Part shown: positions 38,298-63,133 of the stretch, piece by piece | How the letters are laid out: each line of letters starts with the position of its first letter | How positions within the stretch are numbered: the stretch's first letter is position 1 | From: Parcubacteria group bacterium | GTDB lineage: Bacteria > Patescibacteriota > Minisyncoccia > Moranbacterales > UBA2206 | DNA: 64,000 nt | NCBI GenBank assembly: GCA_041674205.1 | Contig: JBAYWF010000003.1 | Coordinates: 47,221-111,220, forward strand | Direction of reading: 5' to 3' | Notes under the pieces: generated by a model | The model's input: the letters and a program-made list of their open reading frames with translations, nothing else | The model's database searches: none | Told to the model about the DNA's origin: nothing | Translations under genes and position numbers: made by a program

Positions 38298-38394
38298 AAA
38301 ATTCCCTGGATAATAATTTCAAAATCTGAAGCGTGCAGCATTTTAATGGGACGTAGTGGGATCAGATTACCATATCCTGCGATACAAGCCTATT

Positions 38395-38799: not shown

Positions 38800-38827
38800 A
38801 GCGAGAGAGTTAAAAATAGACTTATTT

Positions 38828-39461: not shown

Positions 39462-39496
39462 ATATTTATAATTTAGAGAGTGTCGCACAAAAATTT

Positions 39497-39681: not shown

Positions 39682-39708
39682 ATGTAAAATTTTTTTAATT
39701 CACTTTTA

Positions 39709-40515: not shown

Positions 40516-40548
40516 AATGTTAAAAAAGTGAATTAAAAAAATTTTATT

Positions 40549-40633
40549 TCCGATAACTCGTTTATGCGCGAAATTTGTTTCGTATAATGCTCGATAATTT
40601 GTTTGTTATGCTAAATTATTGCGCGTTATCCGG
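40549..40633 (-). repeat. attC/attI-like boundary site between murJ and first cassette (CCGGATAAC ... GTTATCGG)
   Basis: R''-like CCGGATAAC-GC-GCAATAATTT and R' GAGTTATCGG separated by about 70 nt, immediately after the murJ stop. Confidence 0.4.
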
Positions 40634-40689
40634 ATTTATTTTAATCCCTAAAACTTGCCTGCCGCTTTTTTCTAGAGTATGTACATCTG

Positions 40690-42339: not shown

Positions 42340-42343
42340 AAAT

Positions 42344-44746: not shown

Positions 44747-45867
44747 ACTTTATTCGAGTATATTGCTAAAGTTTCCTCGGCCATTTTTTTCCAGCTATAT
44801 TTCTTAGCCTGGACATAGCCCTTCCCGATCAATTCGTCCCGCAATCCCGCGTCGCTGACGATTCTCCGCATCGCTTCAGCCATCGCCCCGACATCCTTGC
44901 CGTCAAAAAAATGCGCGCTCCCGCCCAAGACTTCCCGCATACAAGGATGATCCGAGGATATGACCGGCACGCCCTTGGACATCGCCTCGAGCGGCGGCAA
45001 ACCGAACCCTTCGTATAAAGATGGAAAAACATTGGCGACCGAGCGATGGAACAGAGTGTCCAATTCGTAATCCGAAACATCCGAAAGGAAAATGATATCT
45101 TCCGCCTGATGTTTCCTAACCGATTTCCGCAACTGCCCGTAAAAATAGTCGTCCTTGCCCACCAACACCAACTGGAAATCTTTTTTTTCTCCGAACGCCC
45201 GGGTGAAAGCCAACACCAGCCTGTCCAGGTTTTTATGCGGATACGCGTTGCCGACATAAATCAGATACGGCTTTATTATACCATATTCTTGCAAAATTTC
45301 CTGGCCATTTCTCCGGCTGAACATACAGAAATCCTCGCACGCTTCATAGGTCACGGTTATTTTATTTTCGACGGACCGGCCGTATTTTTTCACGACGTCA
45401 TCTTTGGTAAATTGCGAAATGGCGATGATATTTTCCGCCCGCATTATCGCCGCCCGAATGACCAGCAGGTACGCGAAAAACTTCACCCGGTAGAAAACCG
45501 GATGCAGCGTGCTGTTTTTGACGGTGGGAAAATGCACCAGCGTCAAATCATGGATAGTCACGATGAATTTTTTGAAATATAACAAAGGGACGTTGAAGTG
45601 GGGAAAATGCATCAGATCCAATCCATACCTGCGCACCATCAGCGGGAAAAATAATTGTTCCCTGAAAGTATACCACCGGTAATCCGCCAAGACTTTTTTG
45701 AAGTTCGGATTCTTAGGCTGGTATTCCTCGAAATTTTCCCGTTGGAGGAAAATCCAATATTCATTGGCCGGATCTATTTTTTCCAAATTCTCCACCAGCT
45801 TCTGGGTATAGCGCCCCAAGCCCTTTTGCCTTATGCCGAAAAAACGCGCGTCGATTCCGATTTTCAT
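44743..45867 (-). CDS. glycosyltransferase family 4
   Basis: EGFGLPPLEAMSKGVPVISSD EX7E motif of GT-B retaining GT4 enzymes. Confidence 0.85.
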   Translation of the reverse strand: MKIGIDARFFGIRQKGLGRYTQKLVENLEKIDPANEYWIFLQRENFEEYQPKNPNFKKVLADYRWYTFREQLFFPLMVRRYGLDLMHFPHFNVPLLYFKKFIVTIHDLTLVHFPTVKNSTLHPVFYRVKFFAYLLVIRAAIMRAENIIAISQFTKDDVVKKYGRSVENKITVTYEACEDFCMFSRRNGQEILQEYGIIKPYLIYVGNAYPHKNLDRLVLAFTRAFGEKKDFQLVLVGKDDYFYGQLRKSVRKHQAEDIIFLSDVSDYELDTLFHRSVANVFPSLYEGFGLPPLEAMSKGVPVISSDHPCMREVLGGSAHFFDGKDVGAMAEAMRRIVSDAGLRDELIGKGYVQAKKYSWKKMAEETLAIYSNKV

Positions 45868-45946
45868 AGCCTAATTATACCACCAAAAACGGCTTGGGAC
45901 TATGCGCGCAAAAACCGAAACCAGGAATTCCGGCCTATGCCGGCTC

Positions 45947-47110
45947 CTACAGTTTATGGATCATCTTCAAAAAATCTTCCGCGGTCCTCAACCAGTTGAA
46001 ATTCCTGGCCTGGGCCAGGCCTTTGCCGACAAGATCATCACGCAATCCGCTGCCTGCCAGCACTTCTTTCATCGCCCGGTATAATTCATCCGGCTTGTGC
46101 GGATCGACCATAATCCCCCCTTTGCCGACGATTTCCGGCAATGAAGAATTGTTCGATGTGATGACCGGCACCCCGCAAGCCATCGCTTCAAGCGGCGGAA
46201 AACCGAAACCCTCGAAAATCGACGGATAGACGAAGAGCGAAGCCAGGTTCATCACGAATTCCTTATCCTCTTCATCGATGAATTTCGCGACTATTATTTT
46301 GTCCCGGTACCGGGAAGCGTTGATTTCGGCGAATATCTCCCCGTTCAGCCAGCCGTCCGATCCCGCGATGACCAATCTGTATTTCGCGATTTCCTCCTGA
46401 TTGGCGTCCGACGCGTCCCGTTGCAATTGGTTATAGGCCGCGATGATGGCCGCGATGTTCTTTCTCGGCTCGATCGTTCCTAAAAAAAGGATAAACTTGT
46501 AGGGCAAGCCGTATTTTTCCTTGACGCGGACCAGCTCGCCGTTATTGCGGTCCAAGACCTTGAATTTTTCCGAAAGGCCGCTATGGGCCGCCCGGATTTT
46601 TTCCGGCTTGATCCGGAAGAGGTTCGCGACGTCTTGCGCCGTAGAATCGGAAACCGCGATGACCCTGTCGGCCCGCCGGCACATTTTCTGCGGATTTATG
46701 AAGACGTGCCATAATCTTCTTTTCCAGGAAAAAGTTTCGGGATATCTGGCGAAAGACAAGTCGTGGATAGTCAAAATCAATTTGGTTTTCCGGCTCACGC
46801 TGCCGAAGATGATATTGGGCATAAAAAAAATATCCGCCCCTCCGATCATTTTGTCTATCTTCGGCCAGTCCAGATACCAAAACAGGAAATTCAAAAGTTT
46901 GTTCGGCCAAGCGAACCTTTTCAGGCTGACATTCGGAAATTCCTTGATCCAGGAAAAATCGACCGCCTCGGATCTGAACGAATTGAAAAAAAGCACATAT
47001 TCGTTGCGCGTATCAAGCTTGAACAGGTTAGTCAAAAGATTGAAGGTATATTCCTCCACCCCGGTATTCCTTCCTTGCGTCAAACATCGAACATCGATTC
47101 CGATCCGCAT
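45947..47110 (-). CDS. glycosyltransferase family 4
   Basis: EGFGFPPLEAMACGVPVITSNNSSLPEIV; start moved to MRIGIDVRCL (47110). Confidence 0.85.
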   Translation of the reverse strand: MRIGIDVRCLTQGRNTGVEEYTFNLLTNLFKLDTRNEYVLFFNSFRSEAVDFSWIKEFPNVSLKRFAWPNKLLNFLFWYLDWPKIDKMIGGADIFFMPNIIFGSVSRKTKLILTIHDLSFARYPETFSWKRRLWHVFINPQKMCRRADRVIAVSDSTAQDVANLFRIKPEKIRAAHSGLSEKFKVLDRNNGELVRVKEKYGLPYKFILFLGTIEPRKNIAAIIAAYNQLQRDASDANQEEIAKYRLVIAGSDGWLNGEIFAEINASRYRDKIIVAKFIDEEDKEFVMNLASLFVYPSIFEGFGFPPLEAMACGVPVITSNNSSLPEIVGKGGIMVDPHKPDELYRAMKEVLAGSGLRDDLVGKGLAQARNFNWLRTAEDFLKMIHKL

Positions 47111-47145
47111 AAGCCTGCAGTTTAAAGATAAATGCCGTCCGGTTT

Positions 47146-47751
47146 TTATTCCAAATAGTGTTTCAACATCACCGCCCAAAATCCAAGGAAAATCCCCAAG
47201 GCCGCCGATGCCAAAAGGATGGCCAGCGCGCCGATCCGATCCTGGATGATGACCGGATCCTGCGCCACGATTTCAAACCAAGCGGCCTCGTTCTGCTTCT
47301 TGTTCAGCAGTTTGATGTTTTTCGTGATGGTTTCCGGTATCGCCGCGGAAATTTTTTCCGCCGATTTTCCATCTTTCGCGGAAAAAGAAACCGCTACGAT
47401 TTGCGCGGAAAGCTTCTCCGCCGTGAAACTTTTGGCCAGCCGGCGCATAGTGAAACTATCCGTCCCGATTCCGGCTTTCCCATAGATATCCACCACGGTC
47501 CGCGGATTTTTCAGCCACTCCACGACGGTTTCGGCGAATTTTTCATCGGCCTGCAAGCGGTAGAAATCATCATAGCGGTAATCGGCGGTCTGTTGGATGC
47601 CGCCGCGGGTGATGTTGAGCGCCAGCGAAGCTGAATATGAAACCGGGCGCAAAGCGAAATACGCGAAACTGCCCAGCACGATCACGATGATCACGCCGAA
47701 AAACAATCCGCCATTCTTCCTGAAAATTTTGAAATATTCTTTCAGTTCCAT
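47146..47751 (-). CDS. Wzz-like polysaccharide chain-length determinant (co-polymerase) protein
   Basis: N-terminal TM after MELKEYFKIFRKNGGLFFGVIIVIVL, periplasmic segment, C-terminal TM; Wzz-type topology. Confidence 0.6.
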   Translation of the reverse strand: MELKEYFKIFRKNGGLFFGVIIVIVLGSFAYFALRPVSYSASLALNITRGGIQQTADYRYDDFYRLQADEKFAETVVEWLKNPRTVVDIYGKAGIGTDSFTMRRLAKSFTAEKLSAQIVAVSFSAKDGKSAEKISAAIPETITKNIKLLNKKQNEAAWFEIVAQDPVIIQDRIGALAILLASAALGIFLGFWAVMLKHYLE

Positions 47752-47802
47752 ATTTTTATTTAAATATTGATAATCCCTCTGGACCGGCAGGAATCCCGAA
47801 AC

Positions 47803-48906
47803 TCAATTCGATTCTTTGAATTTCCCGTATTCACTCTCTATATATTCCTTTATTCTAGCCTTAAAAAGGCTTTTGTCAAATTTCTCGGCCTGCGCACGGA
47901 TATAGGCCGGATCATAGTCGGCATCATTGAATTTGCCGATCGCCTCGACGATGGCTGGCACGGTCTGTTCTTCAAAAAACAAGCCCATTTTCCCCTCTTC
48001 TATATGTTCCGGGATATCACCCCCGCGGAAAGCGATTATCGGACGGCCTGAAGCCATCGCTTCGATAGCCACTATGCCGAAATCCTCCTCTTGCGGGAAA
48101 ATGAACGCCCGGCACTGCGCATAATATCCGGGCAATTCTTCGTCCGAAACGCGCCCTAGGAATTCGATATTGCCTTCCGCCATTTCTTTCAATTTCTGAT
48201 ATTCCGGACCCCGGCCGATTATCTTCAACTGCAAGCCCGTCCGGTTGAAAGCCTGGACCACGAGATCCAATTTTTTGTACGCCATAAACCGTCCGACCAG
48301 GAGGAAATAGTCCCCGCGCTCCGCGCTGGTATAAAATCTCGTGATATCGATTGGCGGATTGATTACCGCGGAATCCCTTTTATAATATTTTTTTATCCTG
48401 CGCGCGATGAAATTGGAATTGGCGATAATCTTGTCCGGCCGATCGGCGCTGACACGGTCCCATATCCGGACATAGTTCATCACCAGCGGTATGAACCTTT
48501 TTATAATCGAAGGGAAATAGAAATCTTCGGTATATTTCTGGCAATCATCCCAAGCGAAACGCATCGGGGTGTGCATATAACAGACGTGCAGCGTTTCCGG
48601 ACCGGTGATGATGCCTTTGGCGAAACTGGATGAATCCGACAAGACGACATCATAGCCGGAAAAATCGAACTGTTCGATGGCCATCGGCATAAATTGCGGA
48701 AAAACCCGGTGCTTCTTCCGGGAAAACGGGATGTTCTGCAAAAAAGACGTCCGGATGTCCTTGCCTTCGAAAAAACCGTGCATCAGTTTTTTGTCATAGA
48801 CCAAGGTGTGGATCGGAGCGTCCGGAAAAACCTCCGTGAAACATTCCAGAACCTTTTCCGCCCCTCCGACTTGGACCAGATAATCGTGAACCAGTGCGAT
48901 TTTCAT
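47803..48906 (-). CDS. glycosyltransferase family 4
   Basis: MKIALVHDYLVQVGGAEKVLE N-terminus and EDFGIVAIEAMASGRPIIAF EX7E motif; start moved to 48906. Confidence 0.85.
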   Translation of the reverse strand: MKIALVHDYLVQVGGAEKVLECFTEVFPDAPIHTLVYDKKLMHGFFEGKDIRTSFLQNIPFSRKKHRVFPQFMPMAIEQFDFSGYDVVLSDSSSFAKGIITGPETLHVCYMHTPMRFAWDDCQKYTEDFYFPSIIKRFIPLVMNYVRIWDRVSADRPDKIIANSNFIARRIKKYYKRDSAVINPPIDITRFYTSAERGDYFLLVGRFMAYKKLDLVVQAFNRTGLQLKIIGRGPEYQKLKEMAEGNIEFLGRVSDEELPGYYAQCRAFIFPQEEDFGIVAIEAMASGRPIIAFRGGDIPEHIEEGKMGLFFEEQTVPAIVEAIGKFNDADYDPAYIRAQAEKFDKSLFKARIKEYIESEYGKFKESN

Positions 48907-48970
48907 ATTTGTTGAATTCGTCGCGATCGACTTTTTCCGAGAGCCGGTGTTTGATTTCAATAACTTCATC

Positions 48971-49156: not shown

Positions 49157-49285
49157 GTTTTTTATTCCTATCTCTCAGCGATTTTCATGAATCAATTATA
49201 CTTCTTTCAAATTTCGATGTCAATCAGCCAAAAAACCCGGAAAAAATTCCGGGTCCGGTCCGGTTTTTCCATTCCGGCAAGCGGA

Positions 49286-51127
49286 TCATCCGACCTGCTT
49301 TGCGATTTCTTTCGGGGTTATGATCGGCAGTTCCACGATGAATTGCGAACCTTTACCTTCGCCTTCCGACTCCACCCAGATGCGCCCGCCGTTGCCTTCG
49401 ATGAAGCCTTTGCACAGATACAAACCCAGTCCGGTGCCGCCGGCATTCAGGCGGCTGGTATCCAAGCCTCTCGAAAATTTAGCGAAAAGATGCGGGATTT
49501 CCTCTTTGGGAATGCCGATGCCGGTATCGGAAATGGTGATCCTGACCACCGGCCCGCTGATGTTTATGCTTTTTTCCTCCGGATTGCTGGTGACTGGCGG
49601 GACATAGCCGGATTTTTCCGCCTGTGTCAGAGCCAAGGTGACGCCGCCCGCCGGGCAATATTTCACCGCGTTATCCACCAGATTGGAAACCGCCTCGCGG
49701 ATGACCTTGCCGTCGATGGTGAGCTCCGGCAATGGGGTTTCCGGTTTTTCATATTTCAAATACAGGCCGTTATCCTTGGCTTTGATGAACAAGGTGTCCA
49801 TCACCTCCTGGCAGAGGTCTTCGATTTTCCATTTGGCGAAATCATATTTCATACCGCCGGATTCGATTTTGGAAGCGGCGAAAAGATCCTCGATCAAAAG
49901 ACCCATATTCTTGATGACAGTCAGGGTTTTGCCCAGCGCGTCCTTCTGCCCGGAAGATATTTCCCCATAGGAGCCTTCTTCGACCATCGACACATACCCC
50001 CGGATGCTGGTAAGCGGTCCGCGCAGGTCATGGGAAGCTCTCGCGATGAAGTCGGTTTTGGCCTGGTCGAGTTTTTTGAGTTCGACGTTAGCTACCGCCA
50101 GTTTGTCGGAAGTTTTCTGCAACTCGTCTTTCTTTTCTCCGAGTTCTTTGTTGGCGATGAACAGTTTCACGTTCTTGACGTTGATCTCCCGGTTGGCGGT
50201 TTGCAGTTCTTCCTTCTGTTCCACTTCTTTCTTGACCGATTTGATGAGATAGTAGCCGAAGACAAAAGACAAAAACAAAGTGATGCCGGTCAGGACCCGG
50301 TTGGTGTTGTTCCTGATAAAAGCGAATTGGGAAGCGATCAGGATGACCTGGGTGGCCACTAAGGCCTGGGCTCCCAGGAGCTTGATGTTGAAAGCTTTGA
50401 ATTTAACGATGAGGTATCCAAGGAAAAGAATGAAAACTGTCATTCCAAATAAGCCATATTGTTCAATCTCAAAAGCATACAGATAACCTTTTTCATCAAG
50501 ATAGCTAGCTAGAAATCCCGCAATAAAAAAAGAAAGGAAAAATAATAATAATCCTATAGAAGCATACCTAATTTTTTTCCTTTCATCTCCCCACGCTTTT
50601 CGATAGCCAAAAAAAGAAAAAATTATAGTTAAAAAAGCAAAGAATAATTCCAAAAAAAATATATAATAATCATAGATTTTTACAATCCCCGGACCAACCA
50701 TTGGCTCACAAATAGGCATATAAAATCCACTAGAATTTTTCAAATTAAACAAAATCGCCGGCATAATTATCATAGCTAGAAATATTTTAAATCCAATATT
50801 AATATCCTTTTTGTTGATAAAAACATAGATAAAATAAAAACACAAAAGAAAAAGCAAGGGATCTAAAATTCCAAGCAGAGACCAGAAAAACATAATCAAA
50901 CTACTATCCACATTTGTCCAAATAATAAGATTGAAAAATGTCCACAAGAAAAAAACAGCTGAAAGGGACAAAAGAATTTTACTCGCCAAATTCCTACTTC
51001 TATAAAAAACAAAAAAACCAAATAGCAAAGCAATCAATGCTGTTGGGATATGTGAGTAGTATAAAAGATGCGGAACTGAGTTAGAAAAAACTAAATATAA
51101 TGGAGCAGGTATGTCAGTACAAAACAT
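49286..51127 (-). CDS. sensor histidine kinase with large polytopic N-terminal membrane domain
   Basis: HisKA H-box ASHDLRGPLTSIRGYV; HATPase_c N/G1/G2 boxes (DNAVKY, DTGIGI, GGTGLGL); about 10 N-terminal TM helices; no response regulator adjacent. Confidence 0.85.
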   Translation of the reverse strand: MFCTDIPAPLYLVFSNSVPHLLYYSHIPTALIALLFGFFVFYRSRNLASKILLSLSAVFFLWTFFNLIIWTNVDSSLIMFFWSLLGILDPLLFLLCFYFIYVFINKKDINIGFKIFLAMIIMPAILFNLKNSSGFYMPICEPMVGPGIVKIYDYYIFFLELFFAFLTIIFSFFGYRKAWGDERKKIRYASIGLLLFFLSFFIAGFLASYLDEKGYLYAFEIEQYGLFGMTVFILFLGYLIVKFKAFNIKLLGAQALVATQVILIASQFAFIRNNTNRVLTGITLFLSFVFGYYLIKSVKKEVEQKEELQTANREINVKNVKLFIANKELGEKKDELQKTSDKLAVANVELKKLDQAKTDFIARASHDLRGPLTSIRGYVSMVEEGSYGEISSGQKDALGKTLTVIKNMGLLIEDLFAASKIESGGMKYDFAKWKIEDLCQEVMDTLFIKAKDNGLYLKYEKPETPLPELTIDGKVIREAVSNLVDNAVKYCPAGGVTLALTQAEKSGYVPPVTSNPEEKSINISGPVVRITISDTGIGIPKEEIPHLFAKFSRGLDTSRLNAGGTGLGLYLCKGFIEGNGGRIWVESEGEGKGSQFIVELPIITPKEIAKQVG

Positions 51128-51169
51128 TTATATTTTTACCTTTAAATAATTAAGTTTCAAATTATTATA

Positions 51170-51667
51170 TTATACATTCATGTATTTTTTATTTTTTTTG
51201 AAATATTCTGGATTTTTCCAATCATTGCCCGTAATTATCTTGCGGCAATTCTTTGATCCACAAAGACAGGGCATCTTATATTCCGGGTCAGTCACTGAAA
51301 ATCCATAGTCATGCGTTAGTTCTTCTCCAGATTTAACATTCTTTATTAAAATCAAACTTCCTTTTTTGTCGTATCCCATATTTGGTTCACAACTATGATT
51401 ACCGAGCCATGCTATCGGCATATAATTCATATTGGGAACTGCATAAAAACCATCTTGGACTTGAGTCCCAAAATGGCCTACAACTTCTTTTGTTATTCTG
51501 TCTAATTTTTCATATACATCCTTACCAAAAAACTTATCAGAATATGAGAAATCATGATCTATAATAATTGTACCTTTTTTTAATGATCTTAAGGCAAACA
51601 AACCTGCTTCACCAGGAAGCATTTTTGATGGCTTAACTCCTATTATTACAGGGGGGAATTTAAACAT
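51170..51667 (-). CDS. SET-domain protein (putative protein-lysine methyltransferase)
   Basis: GLFALRSLKKGTII, NHSCEPN, ELTHDYG and post-SET CLCGSKNCRK are the four SET-domain signature blocks. Confidence 0.8.
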   Translation of the reverse strand: MFKFPPVIIGVKPSKMLPGEAGLFALRSLKKGTIIIDHDFSYSDKFFGKDVYEKLDRITKEVVGHFGTQVQDGFYAVPNMNYMPIAWLGNHSCEPNMGYDKKGSLILIKNVKSGEELTHDYGFSVTDPEYKMPCLCGSKNCRKIITGNDWKNPEYFKKNKKYMNV

Positions 51668-51671
51668 ATTA

Positions 51672-52454
51672 TTATTTTATTAATTTAATTTTTAGATTAA
51701 AATTATTCGCACAATCAATTATATGTTTATTTACACCTGGCGGATAACTCCACCAATAAAAATCCTCATCATCAGTTTGATCTTCCGGATATAAACGCAC
51801 TATCAATGGCCTTAACCCAAATTCTTTCTCCACTCTTTCAATATTCGGCAAAACTATCTTTTCCACAAATCCAGCTTCTCCTTTTTCCCTGTCATCGAAA
51901 GAAAAAGTCTCAAACAAAATTCCGTGAGCAATCAGATGAAGCATCGTGTAATAATAATAACCTGAAACATCTTGAACTTTTTTTCTCCATTCCGGATTGT
52001 CATATATTTCCATTTCATAGCCGGAAATTTTGCAAAGATTGTGATGGAAATCAACCAGTTTTTCTCCATTTTTCAAAACACACTCATTCAATTTCTTTTT
52101 TTCATTCGTATGGAAATCCATCACATCGACAGTCGCTTTTTCGCCATTTTCCAATGTCACACGCAAACGCCCAAGCCCTTTCTTTTCTTCATTAAAAGAA
52201 ACGAAAATATCCTCGCTCTCCTCCCAAGCCAATGGCTCCGCCCCGACATATTTGGCGCATTGGTAGAGAAACACAAAACCATTATCTGGCGAAGCGACTT
52301 GCCGGTTCAAAACCGCCCTCGGCATATCTTTAAAGGGCGGCAAGAACTTATCCCCCAACTCCTCCTCGATCCTCTTCCTCAGCTCGACATCCGCCCAGCG
52401 TTTTTTCAGTTCTTCCCTGGCTTCGTCCAAGGACACATAGATACCATCCGCCAT
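51672..52454 (-). CDS. hypothetical protein, co-transcribed upstream partner of the SET-domain gene
   Basis: 260 aa, 4-nt gap to the SET gene, no motif recognised. Confidence 0.5.
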   Translation of the reverse strand: MADGIYVSLDEAREELKKRWADVELRKRIEEELGDKFLPPFKDMPRAVLNRQVASPDNGFVFLYQCAKYVGAEPLAWEESEDIFVSFNEEKKGLGRLRVTLENGEKATVDVMDFHTNEKKKLNECVLKNGEKLVDFHHNLCKISGYEMEIYDNPEWRKKVQDVSGYYYYTMLHLIAHGILFETFSFDDREKGEAGFVEKIVLPNIERVEKEFGLRPLIVRLYPEDQTDDEDFYWWSYPPGVNKHIIDCANNFNLKIKLIK

Positions 52455-52575
52455 AATTTTACCCTTAAGATTTTCCGCTTTTTATGATTCCATTATACCA
52501 CAAACCCCCGGAATTGATAAAAGACACCGCGACCCGCGCGATGCCTTTTTTTTGTTGCCATATATATATGAGCTC

Positions 52576-53484
52576 TCACTTTTTGTGGTCTATCTTGAAG
52601 CTCGGCGAGGTAACGGAAACCTTGGGAAATTCATTGACCGTGATGCGGATTTTAGCCTTGTCCGTATCTTTTTTGATGATATCACGGAAAGGCTTGTCCT
52701 CCATATCCCAGCCCTTGGTTCCGTCGTTTTTTGTTGAAGATGCCAAGGTATACCAGCTTCCTCCCCCATTCAAGGAATATTCGATCTTGACCGTGGTGCT
52801 TTTGGGGACATTGGTCGTGTCCCAATCGATCGAATGTTCGCGATCGGTTTTCCAGGTGCCGCCGACCGGATCCTTGATGACGATTGACATCTTGGGCGGA
52901 GGCGGAACATATTTCTTGACCGTGAGATTGGCATATTCGTCAGTGTCATCCCTGTTAGAAATATATTTCTGGCCGCTGTCATGACTGATGATTTTGGCAT
53001 AGATATAATACTCGCCCAAATCATCAGGAGTCCGCAAAGGTTCTCCGTCCGAATCTTCGGTTTTCCGGTCTTGTAACATTTCGCCGCCTTGGATTTCATC
53101 GATCCAATCGGAAGCGATGTATTCATCATCACTATCACCGAAGATATAGTCACGAGACCTGTAATAACTGGTTTCCACATCCCTGGCTGGATCGTCTCCG
53201 GTATTTTCCAGTTCGATATGGATATGATAGCGGACGTCCGGCTCCTTAGACAGCTGGTGCTCGGAATAGCGATTACTGTCATCGGAGAGTTCAAGGTGCT
53301 TGACTTTGACGCGGGCGTCAGAAGCGCAATCATCTTCTCCGCCACATTCAGCATCAGGATTTTTTCCGATATCCCACAATAGCTGCCTTACCTCCTGATT
53401 AAGATTGTTTGCCCAGACGTTAGGAACGTTAAACGAAGCAAACAGCAACACGAAAACCATATGACCAACGAAACGTTTTAGCAT
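52576..53484 (-). CDS. hypothetical secreted acidic protein
   Basis: start moved to MLKRFVGHMVFVLLFASFNVPNVWA (signal peptide) preceded by GAGGAGG; Asp/Glu-rich. Confidence 0.5.
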   Translation of the reverse strand: MLKRFVGHMVFVLLFASFNVPNVWANNLNQEVRQLLWDIGKNPDAECGGEDDCASDARVKVKHLELSDDSNRYSEHQLSKEPDVRYHIHIELENTGDDPARDVETSYYRSRDYIFGDSDDEYIASDWIDEIQGGEMLQDRKTEDSDGEPLRTPDDLGEYYIYAKIISHDSGQKYISNRDDTDEYANLTVKKYVPPPPKMSIVIKDPVGGTWKTDREHSIDWDTTNVPKSTTVKIEYSLNGGGSWYTLASSTKNDGTKGWDMEDKPFRDIIKKDTDKAKIRITVNEFPKVSVTSPSFKIDHKK

Positions 53485-53540
53485 TTTTCCTCCTCGAATC
53501 AATTCTGATTTGATTTTTTGTCATATCCGCTACATAGCCA

Positions 53541-53933
53541 TTATGGTATCGGGACGAATTTAACTCTGTACAACACAGGCAATATCCGCTGCAAAATGCT
53601 TGAGATTTGCGGATAACGCTCCAATATGTAGACAGGGAGGCCTGTGTTTTCAAGCAGATTGCAGAAATGACAGGCAACCTCAGGATCGACTCCTTGCGTA
53701 TTGAAAGCCTTTTTTGCTTCCCAAGCCTGGATTGGAGTAAATTTAACTATTTCAGAGCCTGGGATTGATAGATATACTTGGGATTTCTCTTCCACCCAGG
53801 AACGCATCCTATCCATTGAATTGCAGTCGAAGCATTCACATTCAGGCTCTCCAGGATTGTATTTATCCCAAAAAATGACACACACCGAATTGCTTCCCTT
53901 ATCGAACCAAAAAATCACATGAACATTCGACAC
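53541..53933 (-). CDS. hypothetical Cys-rich protein
   Basis: 130-aa ORF with CECFDCNSMD and CHFC motifs. Confidence 0.35.
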   Translation of the reverse strand: MSNVHVIFWFDKGSNSVCVIFWDKYNPGEPECECFDCNSMDRMRSWVEEKSQVYLSIPGSEIVKFTPIQAWEAKKAFNTQGVDPEVACHFCNLLENTGLPVYILERYPQISSILQRILPVLYRVKFVPIP

Positions 53934-54125
53934 TTCTAGACCGCTTTATACAGAAAAAAAATGTCGATTAAAATGCAAAGCGTATGGAATTTCCGTACCA
54001 GGAAAACAACCCGGTGCATTTTTCATTCGTGTAATAGTATGAGACTCGACTCCATCTTTAACATCGTATTCGTTAGATAAATGTGGAGTTTCTCCAAGAT
54101 AACCCTCGTAGTCATTTAGACTATA

Positions 54126-54350
54126 TCAATTATCTGGCATATGCTTCTTTCTCAATTCATCAAACTTATTCCAGAAATCATCCGGATCACAGTTTGAATC
54201 TTGGGATATGTCTTGAATTTTTTTAGCAAGATCATTCAGAAGATTAGGCATCATGCCATCATTACTCGAACTTGAAAACGCATTAATCGCCATTGCAAGT
54301 CCACAAAAAAACAGACCAACCGTAAAAATCAATACCTTTCCTAGCCTCAT
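54126..54350 (-). CDS. small secreted protein
   Basis: 74 aa, signal peptide MRLGKVLIFTVGLFFCGLAMA. Confidence 0.4.
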   Translation of the reverse strand: MRLGKVLIFTVGLFFCGLAMAINAFSSSSNDGMMPNLLNDLAKKIQDISQDSNCDPDDFWNKFDELRKKHMPDN

Positions 54351-54382
54351 TTCTTTCGTCTCCTTCTTTGAATCGATTGATT

Positions 54383-55069
54383 TTAATCCAGCTCACCTTT
54401 AGTTTCCAAGCCGAATCTGCCTCTTAGATATTCAATGAAAACATCCTCCTTGCCAATATCATCATAATATTCAACAGCAATCACATAATGTTGCCAACCT
54501 CCGACCCAAAAACGCATTATGATTCCCATCCTGGAATATTCAATGCTGCCCATATCCTCTTCGAATTGCCCTTCGAGAAGTCCTATTGTTTCATGATTTT
54601 TGAATTTTTCCGACATGATTTGCAAATATGAAATGGAAACACGACCTTTTGGATTGTTGTCTGATAAGTTTTCTGGCACTCCAAACAGATCCTCCCTCCT
54701 TTTTCTTATTTTATACACATCATATCCGTGCAATTGCATTGATGATTCTTTTCTATACAAAGAAACCTCGATGCCAATCTTCTTGAAAAAATCAATAAGC
54801 ATTTGGATATTAATTTCTCGCGAATTATATCTGACACCTATTATATCTTTTCCAAAATTATTCAATTTTTCTACAAAGAAAATTTCATAGATACTTTTTG
54901 GCATCCTCATATTATCCGGTACCCAACAAAGAAAAACATCATGAATAAATTTGCCCAGGGATCCATACTCCTCTATAATCTCCGCCTTGACCGACAAAAC
55001 CTCGAAACCTTCCGGAGCAAATGCCTCACTCCAAAATCCAATTTTATTTGATTCAGTACATATCTTCAT
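54383..55069 (-). CDS. hypothetical protein
   Basis: 228-aa ORF, no motif. Confidence 0.45.
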   Translation of the reverse strand: MKICTESNKIGFWSEAFAPEGFEVLSVKAEIIEEYGSLGKFIHDVFLCWVPDNMRMPKSIYEIFFVEKLNNFGKDIIGVRYNSREINIQMLIDFFKKIGIEVSLYRKESSMQLHGYDVYKIRKRREDLFGVPENLSDNNPKGRVSISYLQIMSEKFKNHETIGLLEGQFEEDMGSIEYSRMGIIMRFWVGGWQHYVIAVEYYDDIGKEDVFIEYLRGRFGLETKGELD

Positions 55070-55190
55070 ACGTTTTCTCCCGATGTGTTAGTTATTATCC
55101 TCTATTCAGAGCTTACTTGACCGGTATTAGATTGTCAAAGGATAACGGGGTCAGGAGCCTTTTTTATGGGCAGGTAATCAGGGTCAGGAT

Positions 55191-55325
55191 CTTTTTAAGC
55201 CGTCCTCCTTGTTTTAGCGTTGAAATCAGACCTAGTTTTTTAACTATCTTTTTTATCCAACTATCATCCCCGAATGGCCGGTTTTTTTAATGGAATATCC
55301 GGTTGTTTCAATTTTTTCTTATTCA
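55191..55325. repeat. about 135-bp direct repeat, copy A (partner at 57831-57965)
   Basis: about 92% identity over ...TTTTAAGCCGTCC.CCTTGTTTTAGCGTTGAAATCAGACCTAGTTTTT.A.CTATCTTTTTTATCCAACTATCAT...GGAATATCCGGTTGTTTCAATTTTTTCTT. Confidence 0.85.
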
Positions 55326-55528
55326 CCTTTTTGTTTTTTGCATAATTTTTATTTGAATAAAAGGCACCTGACCCCATTGTTTCGGAAGATTCAATCTTAG
55401 GAGCTAACCTTCGGGATTAGAGCTATATACATTTGACAGAAAAAGACTGGAAGTGTTACATTACGCTTAATATTACTTTCTTATTAACACGCTATGCCTT
55501 GTTTAACCCGTGTCCTAAAAAATAAAAT

Positions 55529-56536
55529 ATGTTAAGCAAGAAAAATGGATTCAACTCTAATGTAACTTTCGAGCGAATATCCTCTTTGACAAAATATCAG
55601 GTCACAAAAAAAATTGGCGTGCGACGTGATGAGTTGGCTTTTTCGGAAGCTATTGAGCTTGCTAAAGATATTACGGAATATCAAAACCAACTGCGATCTA
55701 TCGGAATTCCAATTCCACCAATCGACGAACTGGATGTAAAATACTTTCCAGAAACTGAAAAAGCTTCAATCGCCCTTTTAACACCTTGGGCTGGCGAAGA
55801 TGTTGAGTCAGTTATTCTTTCATTAGATACGGAACAAGACAAAAAAACAATAGAGTGGATTATAAAAGAAATGTGCCGTATAACATTACTAGCCTGCACC
55901 AAAAGAACAAAGGATGGGGAGTTATCTGTCGGCATTGACGCAAAGACAAATAATTTCACTGTAGCAATAGACAATTCCGGCAGGCGGACTATGTCTTATG
56001 TCGATCAATATCCTCCCCACTATTGGAAAAATGGAGTGCCTCTTTTGGAGTGGGTACCCCTAAAATCCCCTCTTGGCAAAGAATTGAATCGATTTAAATA
56101 TTTTGACTGGCGCGGTGTTTTTCTGACGCTAACATCCCAGTTGTGCCGAATTAGCCCATCGCTTAAAAAACAAGTGGAAGTAATCGCCCTTGATGAATTC
56201 AAGAAATGTTTCGCAGAATCTGAATTTAAAGAGTTCCATAATCAATTCATCGAGCTTCCTTGGATTATTTTCCGTAAAATGTTAGAAAAAAATAAATTAA
56301 CCCAAGCTGAACAGATAATTATGCAGTGCGTTTATGATAAAGTATTTGGCGTCAGATATAGCTTCTACACGCTTCGTGAAATAGCATTGGAGATGGCTAT
56401 GCGTCAATTAATTTCCCTGGATGAATTGCATAAATTATTTTTTGATTTATATTTTGAAGATGAAGAGTTTATGCCAGAACGATGGAAAAGCATCCAGGAA
56501 CGATTGTGTCGATTCGTTAGACGCCCCCTCCCATAA
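55529..56536 (+). CDS. hypothetical protein
   Basis: 335-aa ORF, one of only three plus-strand genes; no motif. Confidence 0.5.
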   Translation: MLSKKNGFNSNVTFERISSLTKYQVTKKIGVRRDELAFSEAIELAKDITEYQNQLRSIGIPIPPIDELDVKYFPETEKASIALLTPWAGEDVESVILSLDTEQDKKTIEWIIKEMCRITLLACTKRTKDGELSVGIDAKTNNFTVAIDNSGRRTMSYVDQYPPHYWKNGVPLLEWVPLKSPLGKELNRFKYFDWRGVFLTLTSQLCRISPSLKKQVEVIALDEFKKCFAESEFKEFHNQFIELPWIIFRKMLEKNKLTQAEQIIMQCVYDKVFGVRYSFYTLREIALEMAMRQLISLDELHKLFFDLYFEDEEFMPERWKSIQERLCRFVRRPLP

Positions 56537-56569
56537 GTTAGAATTAATTTTTAAATTTACTAAATATCT

Positions 56570-57034
56570 ATGGCAAACTACATAAAATGGATCCGGGAAA
56601 GAGTTGGTCACGACCCGATAATACTAAACGCTTCTGCAGCCTTTGTTCTGAATGATGAAAATCAAGTTCTTTTATTGCGCCGCTCTGATCGCAATGAAGA
56701 AGTTTGGGGAGTGCCAGGCGGCATGATGGAAATAGGTGAATCAGCGGAGGATACGATGAAACGAGAAGTATTGGAAGAAACAGGGCTAAACGTAAAAGTT
56801 GAAAAATTTCTTGGAGCCTATACTAAAGACAGGTTTGACTCTTACCCGAATGGGGACAGGGCATATGTGATCCTTTTTGTTTTTGTGTGCCGCGTGATCG
56901 ATGGGGCACCTATCGCTAATAATGAAGAGGCGGCGGAACTGCGCTACTTTGATCCAGATAATTTTCCATCAACCTTCAGACATAAACAAGTTTTGGAAGA
57001 TTATAAATCCAACTTAAGCGGAATAATCAGATAA
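56570..57034 (+). CDS. Nudix hydrolase
   Basis: WGVPGGMMEIGESAEDTMKREVLEETGL Nudix box. Confidence 0.85.
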   Translation: MANYIKWIRERVGHDPIILNASAAFVLNDENQVLLLRRSDRNEEVWGVPGGMMEIGESAEDTMKREVLEETGLNVKVEKFLGAYTKDRFDSYPNGDRAYVILFVFVCRVIDGAPIANNEEAAELRYFDPDNFPSTFRHKQVLEDYKSNLSGIIR

Positions 57035-57065
57035 AGATAATTAAAAACAATTCTATATAAATAAA

Positions 57066-57107
57066 ATGAGCTTTGGTTGTCATACCAAAGCTCATCACTT
57101 TTCTTCC
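57066..57107. terminator. bidirectional intrinsic terminator between convergent Nudix and NMNAT-like genes
   Basis: perfect 12-bp stem ATGAGCTTTGGT/ACCAAAGCTCAT, 6-nt loop, T-rich tracts on both sides. Confidence 0.7.
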
Positions 57108-57112
57108 CCATT

Positions 57113-57721
57113 TTAAAATGATTGTTCTTGCTTGGTACGGTAGACTTCTTCCATCCTAGCCGGACCATTGATTCGCAAGAAAACTTCATAAGCTCCCTGT
57201 GGAATAAATTCTTTCCACGATTCTCCGCCTTCCATAACCTTTTTTATGATTCTTGCATTATGCAGTTTAAAAGGAGGAGAAACGGATTCATAATTTCGTC
57301 CTAGGAGCTCTGGAAATATCTTACCTCTCAACGCGTCAATACTTGCGTCGCCATCTTTTTTTTCTGGCCGTACAATCATGAATTCCGCAGGAGGATATCT
57401 CACGTTGAATTCTTTATCAAAGTACGGTCTTTTTGAAATATCACAGCTGATACGATGGTTCAGCTTACGACCTACTGTCCAGGCGTCCCACATCTCCTTT
57501 ACCTCATTGGGTGTAAAAGGATTTTTGCCTGGCGCATAAGATGTTTTTTCCGATGCTTTAATGTACTCCTCCCACCTTCCGATATCGAACCATTCTGGTT
57601 TTGGCGTGTTGTATACTACGCATATAGTAACAAATTGCCATTTATTGAGAATGGTCTCTACCGTACAAACATGGGCAATCGTGGGAGGCTGAAAGCGTCC
57701 CTGAAACAAAGCGTATTTCAT
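57113..57721 (-). CDS. cytidylyltransferase-like nucleotidyltransferase (NMN/NaMN adenylyltransferase NadM-like)
   Basis: N-terminal ALFQGRFQPPTIAH fits the GxFxPxHxGH nucleotidyltransferase motif of NadM-type NMNATs. Confidence 0.55.
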   Translation of the reverse strand: MKYALFQGRFQPPTIAHVCTVETILNKWQFVTICVVYNTPKPEWFDIGRWEEYIKASEKTSYAPGKNPFTPNEVKEMWDAWTVGRKLNHRISCDISKRPYFDKEFNVRYPPAEFMIVRPEKKDGDASIDALRGKIFPELLGRNYESVSPPFKLHNARIIKKVMEGGESWKEFIPQGAYEVFLRINGPARMEEVYRTKQEQSF

Positions 57722-57821
57722 TGATCCTCCTTTGTGTTTTGGGGAAGAAGGTGGATATTTAAAGTATTATATGTTTGCCTATAGTTGTCAATATGACGTT
57801 TGATTCTAAAAAATAATGGGG

Positions 57822-58049
57822 TTAAGCATATTTTTTAAGCCGTCCCCCTTGTTTTAGCGTTGAAATCAGACCTAGTTTTTCAGCTATCTTTTTTATCCAA
57901 CTATCATTTACGAATAGCCGGCCTTTTTTAATGGAATATCCGGTTGTTTCAATTTTTTCTTCTTCATTTTTTTTGCAAAGTATTCCGAGGTATTCCTGCC
58001 ATAACCGAAGCTTAGCATGTTTTTTACGGCATCTGACCTCTTTATTCAA
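57822..58049 (-). CDS. small ORF whose 3' end lies in direct-repeat copy B (doubtful)
   Basis: 75-aa ORF; homologous frame in copy A is disrupted. Confidence 0.2.
   Translation of the reverse strand: MNKEVRCRKKHAKLRLWQEYLGILCKKNEEEKIETTGYSIKKGRLFVNDSWIKKIAEKLGLISTLKQGGRLKKYA
57831..57965. repeat. about 135-bp direct repeat, copy B
   Basis: see copy A at 55191-55325. Confidence 0.85.
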
Positions 58050-58080
58050 TCGGGGTGCTATGGCATGTTTTGACTGGAAT

Positions 58081-58110
58081 GAAGCGAAAAACCGGTTTTA
58101 GCCGGTTTTT
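58081..58110. terminator. intrinsic terminator after the coiled-coil repeat gene
   Basis: AACCGG TTTTAG CCGGTT hairpin with T-runs on both strands. Confidence 0.5.
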
Positions 58111-58126
58111 TTGAAGTTTACGTTTT

Positions 58127-58648
58127 CTATTTAGCTCTTGCCAACACCAGTTTTTCCAGCTTGACCAATCTTTTCTCAAAAGCCTCCATCTTCTCCGTTT
58201 GATCGATTTTTCCAAGATTCTTTTTCATCTCTTTGAACTCAGATTTCAGATACCGGATCTCGTCATCGATATTGAAGAGATATTCTTTAACCACCTTGAA
58301 GTTTTCATTGGTTTGATCGCGAAATTCAAACAATCCCTTGAAATTTTCATTGGTTTGATCGCGAAATTCAAACAATCCCTTGAAATTTTCATTGGCTTGA
58401 TCGCGAAATTCAAACAATCCCTTGAAGTTTTTGCTTGTCTCATTCCTGAATTCAACCATCTCTCCTTTGAATTCCACAAATTCTTCATTATTGTCATCTA
58501 TTTTTTTATTCAAAGAAGAAAACTGCTCCAAAACCAAAACCAGCTTGGAATTCATATCTTCCAGAACGACGGTCTGCTGATCGCGTTTTGTTTTTTCGAT
58601 TTTCTTTTTCATGCTCCATATTTTAACAAATCGCCTCTGGACAGTCAA
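58127..58648 (-). CDS. coiled-coil protein with tandem 14-aa repeats
   Basis: NFKGLFEFRDQ(A/T)NE repeated 3.5 times, encoded by 42-bp tandem DNA repeats at 58294-58446. Confidence 0.5.
   Translation of the reverse strand: MTVQRRFVKIWSMKKKIEKTKRDQQTVVLEDMNSKLVLVLEQFSSLNKKIDDNNEEFVEFKGEMVEFRNETSKNFKGLFEFRDQANENFKGLFEFRDQTNENFKGLFEFRDQTNENFKVVKEYLFNIDDEIRYLKSEFKEMKKNLGKIDQTEKMEAFEKRLVKLEKLVLARAK
58294..58446 (-). repeat. 42-bp tandem repeat, about 3.6 copies, in-frame within CDS 58127-58648
   Basis: GAAATTCAAACAATCCCTTGAAATTTTCATTGGTTTGATCGC repeated near-perfectly. Confidence 0.9.
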
Positions 58649-58805
58649 ACTTCCGGTTTGAGCCGGTTCTCAGGCATAATTTTCAGGCGGATAATTGGAG
58701 CCAGGCGCCGCAACCTGCGCGATGCCTTGGGAATACCTCCTCATAACAAAGCTTTCTTTTTTTGGCCATTGTTGTTATATTGATTCTATTATTGATAATT
58801 ACCCA

Positions 58806-59294
58806 ATGGAGAAAAACATCATTAAAATCGCCATCGTTATCCGCGACAAAGAAAACCCGGAAAATGTCCTTCTCATTAAGGAAAAGGTTGAAAAAAGCAG
58901 CGTTGCGAAATGGAATATTATAAAAGGAACTTGCGAGACGCAGAAAGAGGATATTTTTGAGGCAGCCGTAAGAGAATGCTTCGAGGAAGCGTCGGTCCAT
59001 ATCAGGATAGAATCTTCCTTGGGCTGTTTTTTTGTTTCAAAAGAAGATGGGTCAACCAGCATCCAATTCAATTTTCTGGCAAGCATCGGCTCGGGGAATA
59101 TCGGAATCCAGGATAAAAATTTCCAAAAGAAGCTAGGTGAAAACATATCGGAAGTGCGATGGTTCGACAAATCAGAAATAGCTGGAATGGATGACTCTGA
59201 ATTTGTTTCACCCCGCACGAAACTTCTTCTCGACAATTGGATGAACGGCCGGACATATCCGCTGGACAGCATATCCGTTATGGAAGAAAAGTAG
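58806..59294 (+). CDS. Nudix hydrolase
   Basis: GTCETQKEDIFEAAVRECFEEASV Nudix box; start moved to MEKNIIKIAIVIR (ATG 58806). Confidence 0.8.
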   Translation: MEKNIIKIAIVIRDKENPENVLLIKEKVEKSSVAKWNIIKGTCETQKEDIFEAAVRECFEEASVHIRIESSLGCFFVSKEDGSTSIQFNFLASIGSGNIGIQDKNFQKKLGENISEVRWFDKSEIAGMDDSEFVSPRTKLLLDNWMNGRTYPLDSISVMEEK

Positions 59295-59381
59295 GAAAAA
59301 AATTATCCTCAAAGGCTGAAGATGTTCAGTCACAACTGTCCGAAATATCCACCGCCATATTTAAAGCACTTTCGGAATATA

Positions 59382-59774
59382 TCACACCCTTTCAAATTCC
59401 TCCTTTATCCATTCCGGGTAAACGCCTTCCAGGACCATATTCTTGTCGATCCAACCATATCCCGTATGTTCGCCGCTCAACTTCAATTCGCCGCCGGCAT
59501 ATTTAGCCAAGAAAGTTATGCCTACCAGATGCAAACCGTCTTTCACGAAACCCCATACTCGCGAAGGACGCCCTATTTCGATATTGATACCCAATTCTTC
59601 CCTGACTTCCCTTTTCAAACTTTCTTCCGCGCTTTCGCCGAATTCCATCCTGCCGCCCGGGATATCGATCCCATTGGGATTTATTTCTTCGGTTCCGCTT
59701 TTATACAAAACCAGATATTTCCCGTCATCGTTTTTTATCAACGCTTTCGTGGCAACGCCGAATTTTCTTTCCAT
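59382..59774 (-). CDS. Nudix hydrolase
   Basis: IPGGRMEFGESAEESLKREVREELGI Nudix box. Confidence 0.85.
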   Translation of the reverse strand: MERKFGVATKALIKNDDGKYLVLYKSGTEEINPNGIDIPGGRMEFGESAEESLKREVREELGINIEIGRPSRVWGFVKDGLHLVGITFLAKYAGGELKLSGEHTGYGWIDKNMVLEGVYPEWIKEEFERV

Positions 59775-59813
59775 TTTTTATTCTAAACCGTTTTAACGCG
59801 GATATTTTTTTAT

Positions 59814-60512
59814 TTATAACTTCCTTTTCAAATACGCATCGATTTCTTTTTCAAAAAAATCAGCCACCTCGGCAAGCGTCGCCGGCTCGATCATTTGCGT
59901 TCCATCAATTTCCGTATTTGAAATATCCTGGGTGTATAGGAGCTGCGCCAAAAAAAGCTTTTCATTGAACAATTCCCCATATGCCTCACTTGATTTTTGC
60001 ACGATATCTTCAAGTTTCGTGATTCTCTTTTTCAAAATCACATACAAATCGACGTAGTCCCGCCAAGCGTTTCGCCTATTCATAGCGTAGGCTTTAGTAA
60101 GCGCCACGCCAAGCGAGGAAATAATCCGCAAAGGGGCATCCGGAAATTCAAGCACGTATTTTTCCAAATCAAAAGGATAGAAAATAAAAGATATTTTTAT
60201 ATCATATTCCGTTATAAACGTGAATTCGTCAGCATTGTTCACTAGCACCTCTTTAACGCGCATTTCTTTTTTAATTTTTGCCGGAAAAGACGCCGGGATT
60301 TCCTTGGCACAAAAAATATCAAAATCATAGGACACCCGATGGCCTAATTGAAGAGCCAGCGCCGTTCCGCCCGATAGATAGCCCAAGGAGCGGAAAGTTG
60401 AAAGTTTTTGAAAAATATTTTCCCTTTCCTGATCAAGGATTTCGAGGTGGAGTTTTTCCATATATGTTTTTAATATATTGCTGGCCGTTTTTGACTTTGA
60501 CACCCAAAACAT
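59814..60512 (-). CDS. AbiEii/AbiGii-family nucleotidyltransferase toxin (DUF1814)
   Basis: YLSGGTALALQLGHRVSYDFDIF matches the GGTAL...R.S.D.D(F/I) core of AbiEii toxins; 232 aa; true start may be the internal MEKLHLEIL. Confidence 0.65.
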   Translation of the reverse strand: MFWVSKSKTASNILKTYMEKLHLEILDQERENIFQKLSTFRSLGYLSGGTALALQLGHRVSYDFDIFCAKEIPASFPAKIKKEMRVKEVLVNNADEFTFITEYDIKISFIFYPFDLEKYVLEFPDAPLRIISSLGVALTKAYAMNRRNAWRDYVDLYVILKKRITKLEDIVQKSSEAYGELFNEKLFLAQLLYTQDISNTEIDGTQMIEPATLAEVADFFEKEIDAYLKRKL

Positions 60513-60744
60513 GTTCGAATAGGTGCAGGACGGACGGCGCGTAGATACCCTTGGCAGGTATTTGGAATTCTTGGCTTATCACATCCCGACCATATTTTTG
60601 AAAAAGTTTCCGCACATCCCGCATCGATCCCAAAGCCAGCGTTTGATGGATAATCAAATGGCGATCCTTGGAAAAATCCAAAACGGCTTCGTTTTTTTTC
60701 AGAAACCAAAAAAGCTTATCCACCTTTAATTTAAGTGCTTCCAT
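60433..60744 (-). CDS. hypothetical small protein, candidate cognate antitoxin of the AbiEii-like gene
   Basis: 103-aa ORF immediately upstream of and overlapping the toxin gene; no motif. Confidence 0.35.
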   Translation of the reverse strand: MEALKLKVDKLFWFLKKNEAVLDFSKDRHLIIHQTLALGSMRDVRKLFQKYGRDVISQEFQIPAKGIYAPSVLHLFEHVLGVKVKNGQQYIKNIYGKTPPRNP

Positions 60745-60794
60745 ACTCGTATATTAGCACAAAACAAGCCAAAAATCAAATCAAAAAGCGCTTT

Positions 60795-63042: not shown

Positions 63043-63133
63043 AGATATATAGCAAAAAGGTCTTAACACTCAAATATTACCACATCCAAGCCAAAACATC
63101 AAAATAAAAAAGGCTTGCCGGAATCCGACCGCG

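Follow-up and report, generated by a model that had tools for sequence, protein, structure and literature searches.

The 64,000-nucleotide stretch of a Parcubacteria group bacterium analysed here (the window; positions 47,221 to 111,220 of contig JBAYWF010000003.1, assembly GCA_041674205.1) encodes a small SET-domain methyltransferase between two other genes, one for a 260-aa protein of an undescribed family, which we call the partner, and one for a membrane histidine kinase (Table 1). Comparison of related loci revealed that the usual companion of the partner is the kinase, not SET. In the reading that we favour with moderate confidence, SET is a facultative part of a partner–kinase module, acts on a lysine of an endogenous protein, and was imported into this genome on a short recombination tract.

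We propose that in bacteria of the Parcubacteria/Moranbacteria type, which belong to the candidate phyla radiation (CPR), the core of the module would consist of the partner and a HisKA_7TM-type kinase encoded directly downstream, with SET as a facultative third part. SET would work tethered to the partner, because the two are fused via a flexible linker in other genomes, and it would methylate a lysine of a component of the endogenous pathway. Candidate targets are the partner (e.g., its invariant K91), the kinase, or the downstream target of the kinase. Such methylation would tune signalling, and GNAT acetyltransferases, which are fused or adjacent to the partner in other lineages, may be the alternative lysine modifier there. 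We infer the physical partnership, the endogenous protein target and the regulatory role from the observations set out below.

The predicted partner–SET–kinase operon and related loci

The first-pass annotation of this DNA had reported the partner and SET genes on one strand, 4 nt apart, and had taken them to be co-transcribed. Both open reading frames (ORFs) are present, with the partner upstream. It had missed a third gene on the same strand, that of the histidine kinase, which begins 42 nt past the SET gene; in the ORF list the three genes run head to tail on the minus strand. AAGGGT or AAAGGT lies ahead of the partner gene and of the kinase gene, and the SET gene has no Shine-Dalgarno-like AAGG. 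This, together with the 4-nt junction, suggests that translation of SET is probably coupled to translation of the partner. Because a terminator-like hairpin and a promoter-like site lie upstream of the three genes and another terminator-like hairpin lies downstream, partner, SET and kinase look like one predicted operon, and the proposal of co-transcription is borne out by these signals. The upstream hairpin would end the transcript of the preceding secreted-protein gene and insulate the operon.

Related loci came from unbiased scans of species-representative genomes and of Joint Genome Institute (JGI) metagenomes, and their ORFs were scored with profiles. There were 61 distinct loci with a full-length partner, 40 of which were evaluable, that is, had at least 1 kb of downstream sequence. 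A kinase was called orthologous when its transmembrane and catalytic regions both matched on the same strand, and a SET gene was called adjacent when it lay within 400 nt. The orthologous kinase is found downstream of the partner, on the same strand, in 28 of the 40 evaluable loci, and the two genes still occur together where partner identity has fallen to 36-45%, also in the divergent subfamily B (L034). Both belong to the conserved syntenic core of these bacteria and are not cargo of an island. A SET gene adjoins the partner in 14 of the 61 loci (nine downstream, five upstream). The close SET subfamily adjoins the orthologous kinase in every examined locus (the window, L001, L033, L036, L037 and the P0393 contig). 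Neither partner nor kinase flanks a more distant SET in L038 (40% identity). In L036 (Paceibacterota, 2892-6170), the place of the partner is taken by an LPG_synthase_C/DUF2156 protein (76.6 bits), a family with an aminoacyl-tRNA-dependent transferase fold, and SET and the orthologous kinase follow; after the kinase come an HD_4 (RelA/SpoT-like) gene and then a CysRS gene.

The kinase has clear HisKA (47.1 bits) and HATPase_c (87.1 bits) domains in Pfam. A transmembrane scan placed about 7-9 transmembrane helices at its N-terminus, followed by a coiled coil and then by the two catalytic domains. Residues 29-248 match HisKA_7TM (PF16927) only weakly (E=0.73). The orthologue in L034 passes the cut-off of this family (36.8 bits vs 28.6), and the N-terminal domains of the kinases are clearly homologous to each other (phmmer about 1e-30 to 1e-95 between full-length orthologues, with weaker values only for end-truncated ones). 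The N-terminal region of the window kinase is thus probably of the HisKA_7TM type. A literature search for HisKA_7TM gave only mentions in censuses.

Fusions also connect SET with the partner. At least eight clusters encode partner and then SET in a single polypeptide (P0335, P0390, P0393, P0394, P0399, P0485, P0349 and P0366). In P0335, the SET half and the window SET are clear orthologues, and the P0394 fusion in L033 is an uninterrupted ORF at the DNA level. The kinase follows both of the fusions for which the context was looked up (P0394 and P0393). Because the pairing recurs in 14 of the 61 loci and in at least eight fusion clusters, comparison of these genes supports a functional link between SET and the partner. 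An AlphaFold2 (AF2) model of a natural partner–SET fusion has two well-folded domains and a disordered linker at residues 270-286, which indicates tethering rather than a defined rigid complex, as far as the model goes.

SET is not the only domain found on partner relatives. Three clusters carry a GNAT domain followed by the partner (P0263, P0315 and P0364). In one further cluster, P0242 (L035, 5001-6302), a partner homologue has a C-terminal SYY_C-terminal module (27.2 bits), like the tRNA-binding C-terminus of TyrRS. The synteny of P0242 is canonical (PurD-like, EamA, partner, kinase), and a deletion artefact was rejected as the origin of this fusion because the kinase still follows in its usual place.

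The SET protein and the partner protein

The 165-aa protein is predicted to be a genuine, active-looking minimal SET plus post-SET methyltransferase. It matches Pfam PF00856 with 36.8 bits (gathering threshold 22.4; E=5.6e-9) over model positions 2-105 of 105. The score is well above threshold over the whole domain, and the worry of the first-pass annotation, that scoring against the SET hidden Markov model might be insignificant, does not apply. All of the signature blocks that it had named are present: GEAGLFA (GxG), NHSCEPN, ELTHDYG (ELxxDY) and the post-SET CLCGSKNC (CxCxxxxC). N90, H91, C93, E116, C134, C136 and C141 are invariant across 120 homologues, so that the cysteines of the post-SET zinc cluster (C134, C136 and C141) and the Cys of NHSC (C93) are retained in 120/120. 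N96 (118/120) and D120 (119/120) are near-invariant. Position 121 is Tyr or Trp over the 120 homologues and Tyr in 36 of the 38 close ones. Residue 119, which we take to correspond to the Phe/Tyr product-specificity switch, is His in this protein and differs between homologues. The protein has the SET (β-clip/pseudoknot) fold, and an identical protein in a metagenome-assembled genome (MAG) of the Parcubacteria group carries the NCBI label 'SET domain-containing protein-lysine N-methyltransferase'.

In phmmer searches of the PDB, residues 21-148 match the SET domains of KMT2D (5.2e-13, ~30% identity) and KMT2A (~1e-11); ASH1L, SETD2 and the small-molecule SET enzyme BurB match at ~1e-6. The best matches thus belong to the KMT2/MLL-Set1 (trithorax) enzymes, with which the protein has NHSC, ELxxDY and CxCxxxxC in common, NHSC giving the fourth zinc cysteine. 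Unlike KMT2, it is a stand-alone SET protein without WIN, FYRN/C or PHD modules and without WRAD partners, and its genomic partner is a kinase-linked protein with a Rossmann-like model, not chromatin machinery. The match to BurB, a methionine S-methyltransferase (PDB 9l4t), is weaker than that to KMT2 and confined to the C-terminal half; BurB belongs to a secondary-metabolite or dimethylsulfoniopropionate (DMSP) pathway and is not placed beside a kinase.

The SET protein by itself adds one more ordinary member to a known family. The first-pass annotation had called bacterial SET proteins rare. This did not hold: 228 homologues of this protein alone were detectable, and SET genes are widespread in bacteria (>500 genomes in a 2014 review) and probably arose in prokaryotes (PMC3980110). 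Other fusions of this SET subfamily join it to an FRG domain (PF08867) in P0495, to DUF4760 (PF15956) in P0492 and P0497, and to an unannotated N-terminal region in P0490 from a Kryptoniota MAG.

The partner is a different matter, since its family is undescribed in the literature searched and, large as it is, belongs to no Pfam family. The 260-aa protein is acidic and cytoplasmic and starts with a helical hairpin. Its 208 close homologues, mainly from Parcubacteria or Moranbacteria, are every one annotated 'hypothetical', and an exhaustive profile search gave 804 clusters at 50% identity (664 at E≤1e-10). The first-pass annotation had found no recognisable domain in it. At the sequence level this stands: nothing significant was found in Pfam, NCBIfam, PDB (phmmer), PADLOC or PHROGs, and a profile search of the PDB with hmmsearch gave 0 matches at E≤10. 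At the fold level it does not, for the structural modelling that the same annotation had suggested yielded a Rossmann fold of the kind seen in class I aminoacyl-tRNA synthetases (aaRSs) and other HUP-class proteins. The model, which is a confident one, has the features of a Rossmann-like HUP fold, and the structures most like it are those of class I LysRS, BshC (a putative cysteine ligase) and TyrRS. The similarity of the model is moderate: Foldseek against the PDB gave no match at E≤0.001, and TM-scores were below 0.32.

Unlike class I aaRSs and BshC, the partner lacks the HIGH and KMSKS motifs, a glycine-rich nucleotide loop and any sequence-profile similarity to these enzymes. In place of HIGH (or T/HxGH), subfamily A has SPDNGF and subfamily B has xPNxEF in the loop that follows β1, with no conserved His/Gly pattern, and the region after β5, where KMSKS would be expected, reads YPxxQxxEDFYWWxYPP and is lysine-free. 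Nine polar residues are conserved over 357 family members (E15, R19, E78, D82, N88, K91, H137, Y167 and E182), and the model places several of them at the C-terminal ends of its β-strands, the location of active sites in Rossmann-type proteins. Two other identities were rejected. A Polβ-type nucleotidyltransferase match reaches only 13.9 bits in Pfam (gathering threshold 26.9) and is not backed by the modelled fold, and the model shows no close structural similarity to cyclodipeptide synthases.

Partner paralogues stand in tandem ahead of the kinase, two or three in a row, at 11 of the 61 loci (among them L002, 5001-7370, L014, L015, L021, L040, L042 and L049). The MAGs of five partner-bearing contigs (L013, L021, L023, L024 and L031) carry the labels Bdellovibrionales, Lentisphaerae, Desulfuromonadales, Dechloromonas or Geobacter. 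The family may extend beyond CPR, or else the binning of these contigs is wrong; such loci mostly lack the kinase, which is present only in L013.

The fold of the partner raises the question of small-molecule or aminoacyl chemistry. A degenerate aaRS-like partner might bind or activate an amino acid or use aminoacyl-tRNA, SET (or GNAT in other genomes) would methylate or acylate the amine of this bound substrate or of its product, and the outcome, such as a methylated amino acid, an aminoacyl-lipid or an envelope modifier, would be sensed or regulated by the kinase. The structural neighbours LysRS, BshC and TyrRS are consistent with this, as are the conserved acidic, basic and aromatic residues, which resemble an active site, the DUF2156 protein in the partner's place beside SET and kinase in L036, the TyrRS-C-like module in L035, the GNAT–partner fusions, the recurrence of an EamA transporter and a PurD-like ligase as neighbours, and the precedent of BurB (PMC12542666). 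However, the absence of HIGH and KMSKS makes ATP-dependent activation of the class I type unlikely, and in sequence BurB is a more distant match to SET than the protein lysine methyltransferases are (KMT2, 5e-13). Only a single cluster has the TyrRS-C fusion, the synteny with EamA and PurD-like genes is possibly plain inherited gene order, and the structural scores are modest. We therefore regard this chemistry as possible but rather unlikely, and keep to a protein lysine in the endogenous pathway as the target of SET.

The putative imported tract and the surroundings of the operon

The SET gene does not share the base composition of most of the window. GC content at third codon positions (GC3) is 0.26 in SET, 0.30 in partner codons 101-260 and 0.26 in kinase codons 1-240. 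It is 0.60 in partner codons 1-100, 0.68 in kinase codons 241-613 and 0.56-0.70 in ten other genes of normal composition outside the AT-rich islands of the window. A 150-nt GC profile shows that the edges of this tract are sharp and lie inside genes, near codon 100 of the partner and near codon 240 of the kinase. Foreign base composition is confined to SET and to the adjoining halves of its two neighbours. The first-pass annotation had set the pair in an AT-rich island next to secreted proteins. This picture has to be redrawn, as the low-GC tract has its edges inside the partner and kinase genes, both of which are core genes. Because the tract begins inside the partner and ends inside the kinase, we infer that SET came by homologous recombination, in which a ~1.75-kb segment of a lower-GC relative with partner–SET–kinase replaced the resident region. 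A donor was not found: in segment-wise identity against 119 homologues, none was markedly closer in the tract than in the flank. The N-terminal segment is simply the better conserved one overall (0.63 vs 0.50). If so acquired, the SET gene would be a clean case of accessory-gene gain via flanking-gene homology in a streamlined genome.

Table 1. Positions of the operon, its expression signals and surrounding features in the window
Feature	Position	Strand	Remarks
Partner ORF	52454→51672	minus	260 aa; first gene of three
SET ORF	51667→51170	minus	165 aa; second gene
Histidine kinase ORF	51127→49286	minus	613 aa; third gene
Partner–SET junction	51668..51671	minus	TAA stop of partner, then TAAT, then SET ATG; 4-nt gap
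Terminator-like hairpin and U-run	52519..52549	minus	-17.3 kcal/mol; z = -5.5; 0/200 shuffles as stable
Promoter-like site TTATCA-17-TATAAT, extended -10 TG	52492..52520	minus	upstream of partner; 10/12 matches
Terminator-like hairpin ACCCGGAA-UUUU-UUCCGGGU then UUUUU	49230..49254	minus	32 nt past kinase stop; centroid structure
Consensus promoter TTGACA-17-TATAAT	49223-49195	minus	for next genes; 12/12 matches
Low-GC3 tract	about 50400..52150		~1.75 kb; partner codons ~100-260, whole SET, kinase codons 1 to ~240
AT-rich stretch	52500-60750		between module and its usual upstream neighbours
Signal-peptide protein	52576-53502		in AT-rich stretch
Small secreted ORF	54126-54350		in AT-rich stretch
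NUDIX gene	56570-57034		in AT-rich stretch
AbiEii toxin-like gene	59814-60512		in AT-rich stretch
PurD-like gene	60795-62099		about 8 kb from module
EamA gene	62125-63069		about 8 kb from module
Polysaccharide cluster	40690-48969		directly downstream of operon
Second AT-rich region	30000-41000		GC 0.32-0.41

In other genomes, a PurD-like (GARS) ATP-grasp gene and an EamA transporter gene lie directly upstream of the partner. The PurD-like gene belongs to a family (c2) found in 12 related loci, and a formyltransferase-domain gene accompanies it in L012 and L023. To our knowledge, CPR bacteria generally lack de novo purine synthesis. In the window, the two genes are separated from the module by the AT-rich stretch, which, besides the genes listed in Table 1, holds several ORFs without Pfam matches. 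Because PurD-like and EamA genes are directly upstream of the partner elsewhere, this stretch looks like an inserted accessory island beside the module, not the module's home. The second AT-rich region of the window is larger, has many short ORFs, and contrasts with a GC content of about 0.47-0.52 elsewhere. Downstream of the operon, behind a perfect consensus σ70-type promoter, lies a cell-envelope polysaccharide cluster with three GT4 glycosyltransferases, a Wzz-like protein, a DUF4012 protein and a MurJ flippase. In many loci (L001, L002, L003, L010, L028, L036 and the P0393 contig), genes for aaRSs (PheRS, ArgRS, TyrRS, HisRS, CysRS and ValRS) are no more than about 5 kb away from the module, which may exceed chance for small genomes.

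Cellular role of the SET enzyme

Several observations weigh against the proposed role. SET is missing from about three quarters of the partner loci, so the core function does not depend on it. Extra partner paralogues, small ORFs and a TyrRS-C-like domain are other occupants of the slot between partner and kinase, which may be permissive for insertion. K91 is invariant whether or not SET is present, which suits catalysis or ligand binding no less well than it suits a methyl-acceptor. BurB is a precedent for a SET enzyme acting on a small molecule (PMC12542666). The AF2 model of the fusion has no confident packing between the domains (pTM 0.62). Finally, no receiver domain of the window was picked up by phmmer with CheY and OmpR as queries; among the first-fetched loci one of 32 has one (L025), and in L033 two receiver-domain genes come after the kinase.

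The most radical form of this criticism is that SET has no functional link to its neighbours and is a hitch-hiker in a recombination-permissive slot, the partner and the kinase working without it. The presence of SET at only 14 of the 61 partner loci, on either side of the partner, the other inserts in the slot, and the foreign composition of the tract in the window would all suit this idea. Nevertheless, the fusion clusters, at least eight of them independent and 34-69% identical, argue for selection on physical coupling. By a rough estimate, a gene with 1-2 copies per ~800-gene genome would adjoin the partner by chance in less than one of 61 loci. The catalytic residues of SET are strictly conserved, and the 4-nt junction suggests coupled translation. 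A mere hitch-hiker is thus very improbable, and we retain the tethered methyltransferase of the partner–kinase module.

Prokaryotic SET proteins have usually been discussed in another context, as effectors that act on host chromatin. Those characterised, namely NUE of Chlamydia, RomA/LegAS4 of Legionella, BtSET of Burkholderia and BaSET of B. anthracis, were studied in histone or host-chromatin assays, and archaeal Gö1-SET of M. mazei methylates the chromatin protein MC1-α in vitro (PMC3980110). These are also small SET methyltransferases, but they are secreted effectors or chromatin-protein methylases, and some of the known prokaryotic SET proteins carry ankyrin or secretion determinants. In contrast, the SET protein described here has no secretion signal, lies in a two-component-type operon, and is fused in relatives to a novel cytoplasmic domain. 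The literature searched holds no publication that joins SET domains with CPR/Patescibacteria or with histidine kinases, and no account of a SET enzyme placed in a sensor-kinase operon. Since SET looks built, and elsewhere fused, into a sensor-kinase module, its target would be endogenous and not chromatin.

The first-pass annotation had suggested a host-directed effector or a methylase of nucleoid proteins, a view for which we found no evidence. It would have SET methylate host histones, host nucleoid proteins or the cell's own DNA-binding proteins, with the partner as chaperone or specificity factor. The assays on characterised bacterial SET proteins (PMC3980110), the episymbiont-type lineage (Parcubacteria group), the secreted proteins encoded just upstream, and the basic character of SET (isoelectric point 9.0) are in its favour. 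However, a hydropathy scan, the reach of which does not extend to type III or type IV secretion signals, found no Sec-type signal peptide or transmembrane segment in SET, the partner or the partner–SET fusions. A strong terminator separates the upstream secreted-protein gene from the operon, SET sits within a partner and kinase module with a cytoplasmic partner and is fused into this module elsewhere, and neither secretion-system nor DNA-binding-protein genes recur in the neighbourhoods of related loci. Moreover, known CPR hosts are mostly bacteria, which have no histones. Thus, SET is more likely to act inside the cell, in signalling, than on a host, and we hold the effector role to be very doubtful. 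A defence or phage origin likewise finds nothing in its favour, as SET, partner and fusion have no match in PADLOC or PHROGs.

The endogenous role proposed for SET has analogues in other signalling proteins, namely the methylation of chemoreceptors by CheR/CheB, the USP domain of KdpD and the HisRS-like domain of GCN2. These are functional analogies only, and no homology was found: CheR, for example, is a class I Rossmann methyltransferase acting on glutamates, and the enzyme here is a predicted lysine methyltransferase of the SET family. A bolder version of our proposal, which we think distinctly unlikely, is that the partner family is a sensory or enzymatic domain, derived from class I aaRSs and not recognised before, which couples amino-acid, aminoacyl-tRNA or nucleotide status to the 7TM kinase in auxotrophic CPR bacteria, and that lysine methylation of the partner or the kinase by SET, or their acetylation by GNAT, adapts or tunes this coupling. 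If true, this would amount to a prokaryotic counterpart of GCN2-type sensing by an aaRS-like domain, joined to covalent adaptation of the chemotaxis kind, and the enzyme would be the first SET methyltransferase dedicated to bacterial signal transduction.

In CPR bacteria, the partner family constantly accompanies a 7TM kinase. This is a group whose signalling and host sensing are almost unknown, and with three small soluble parts (the partner, SET and the cytoplasmic domain of the kinase) the module offers a testable entry point into them.

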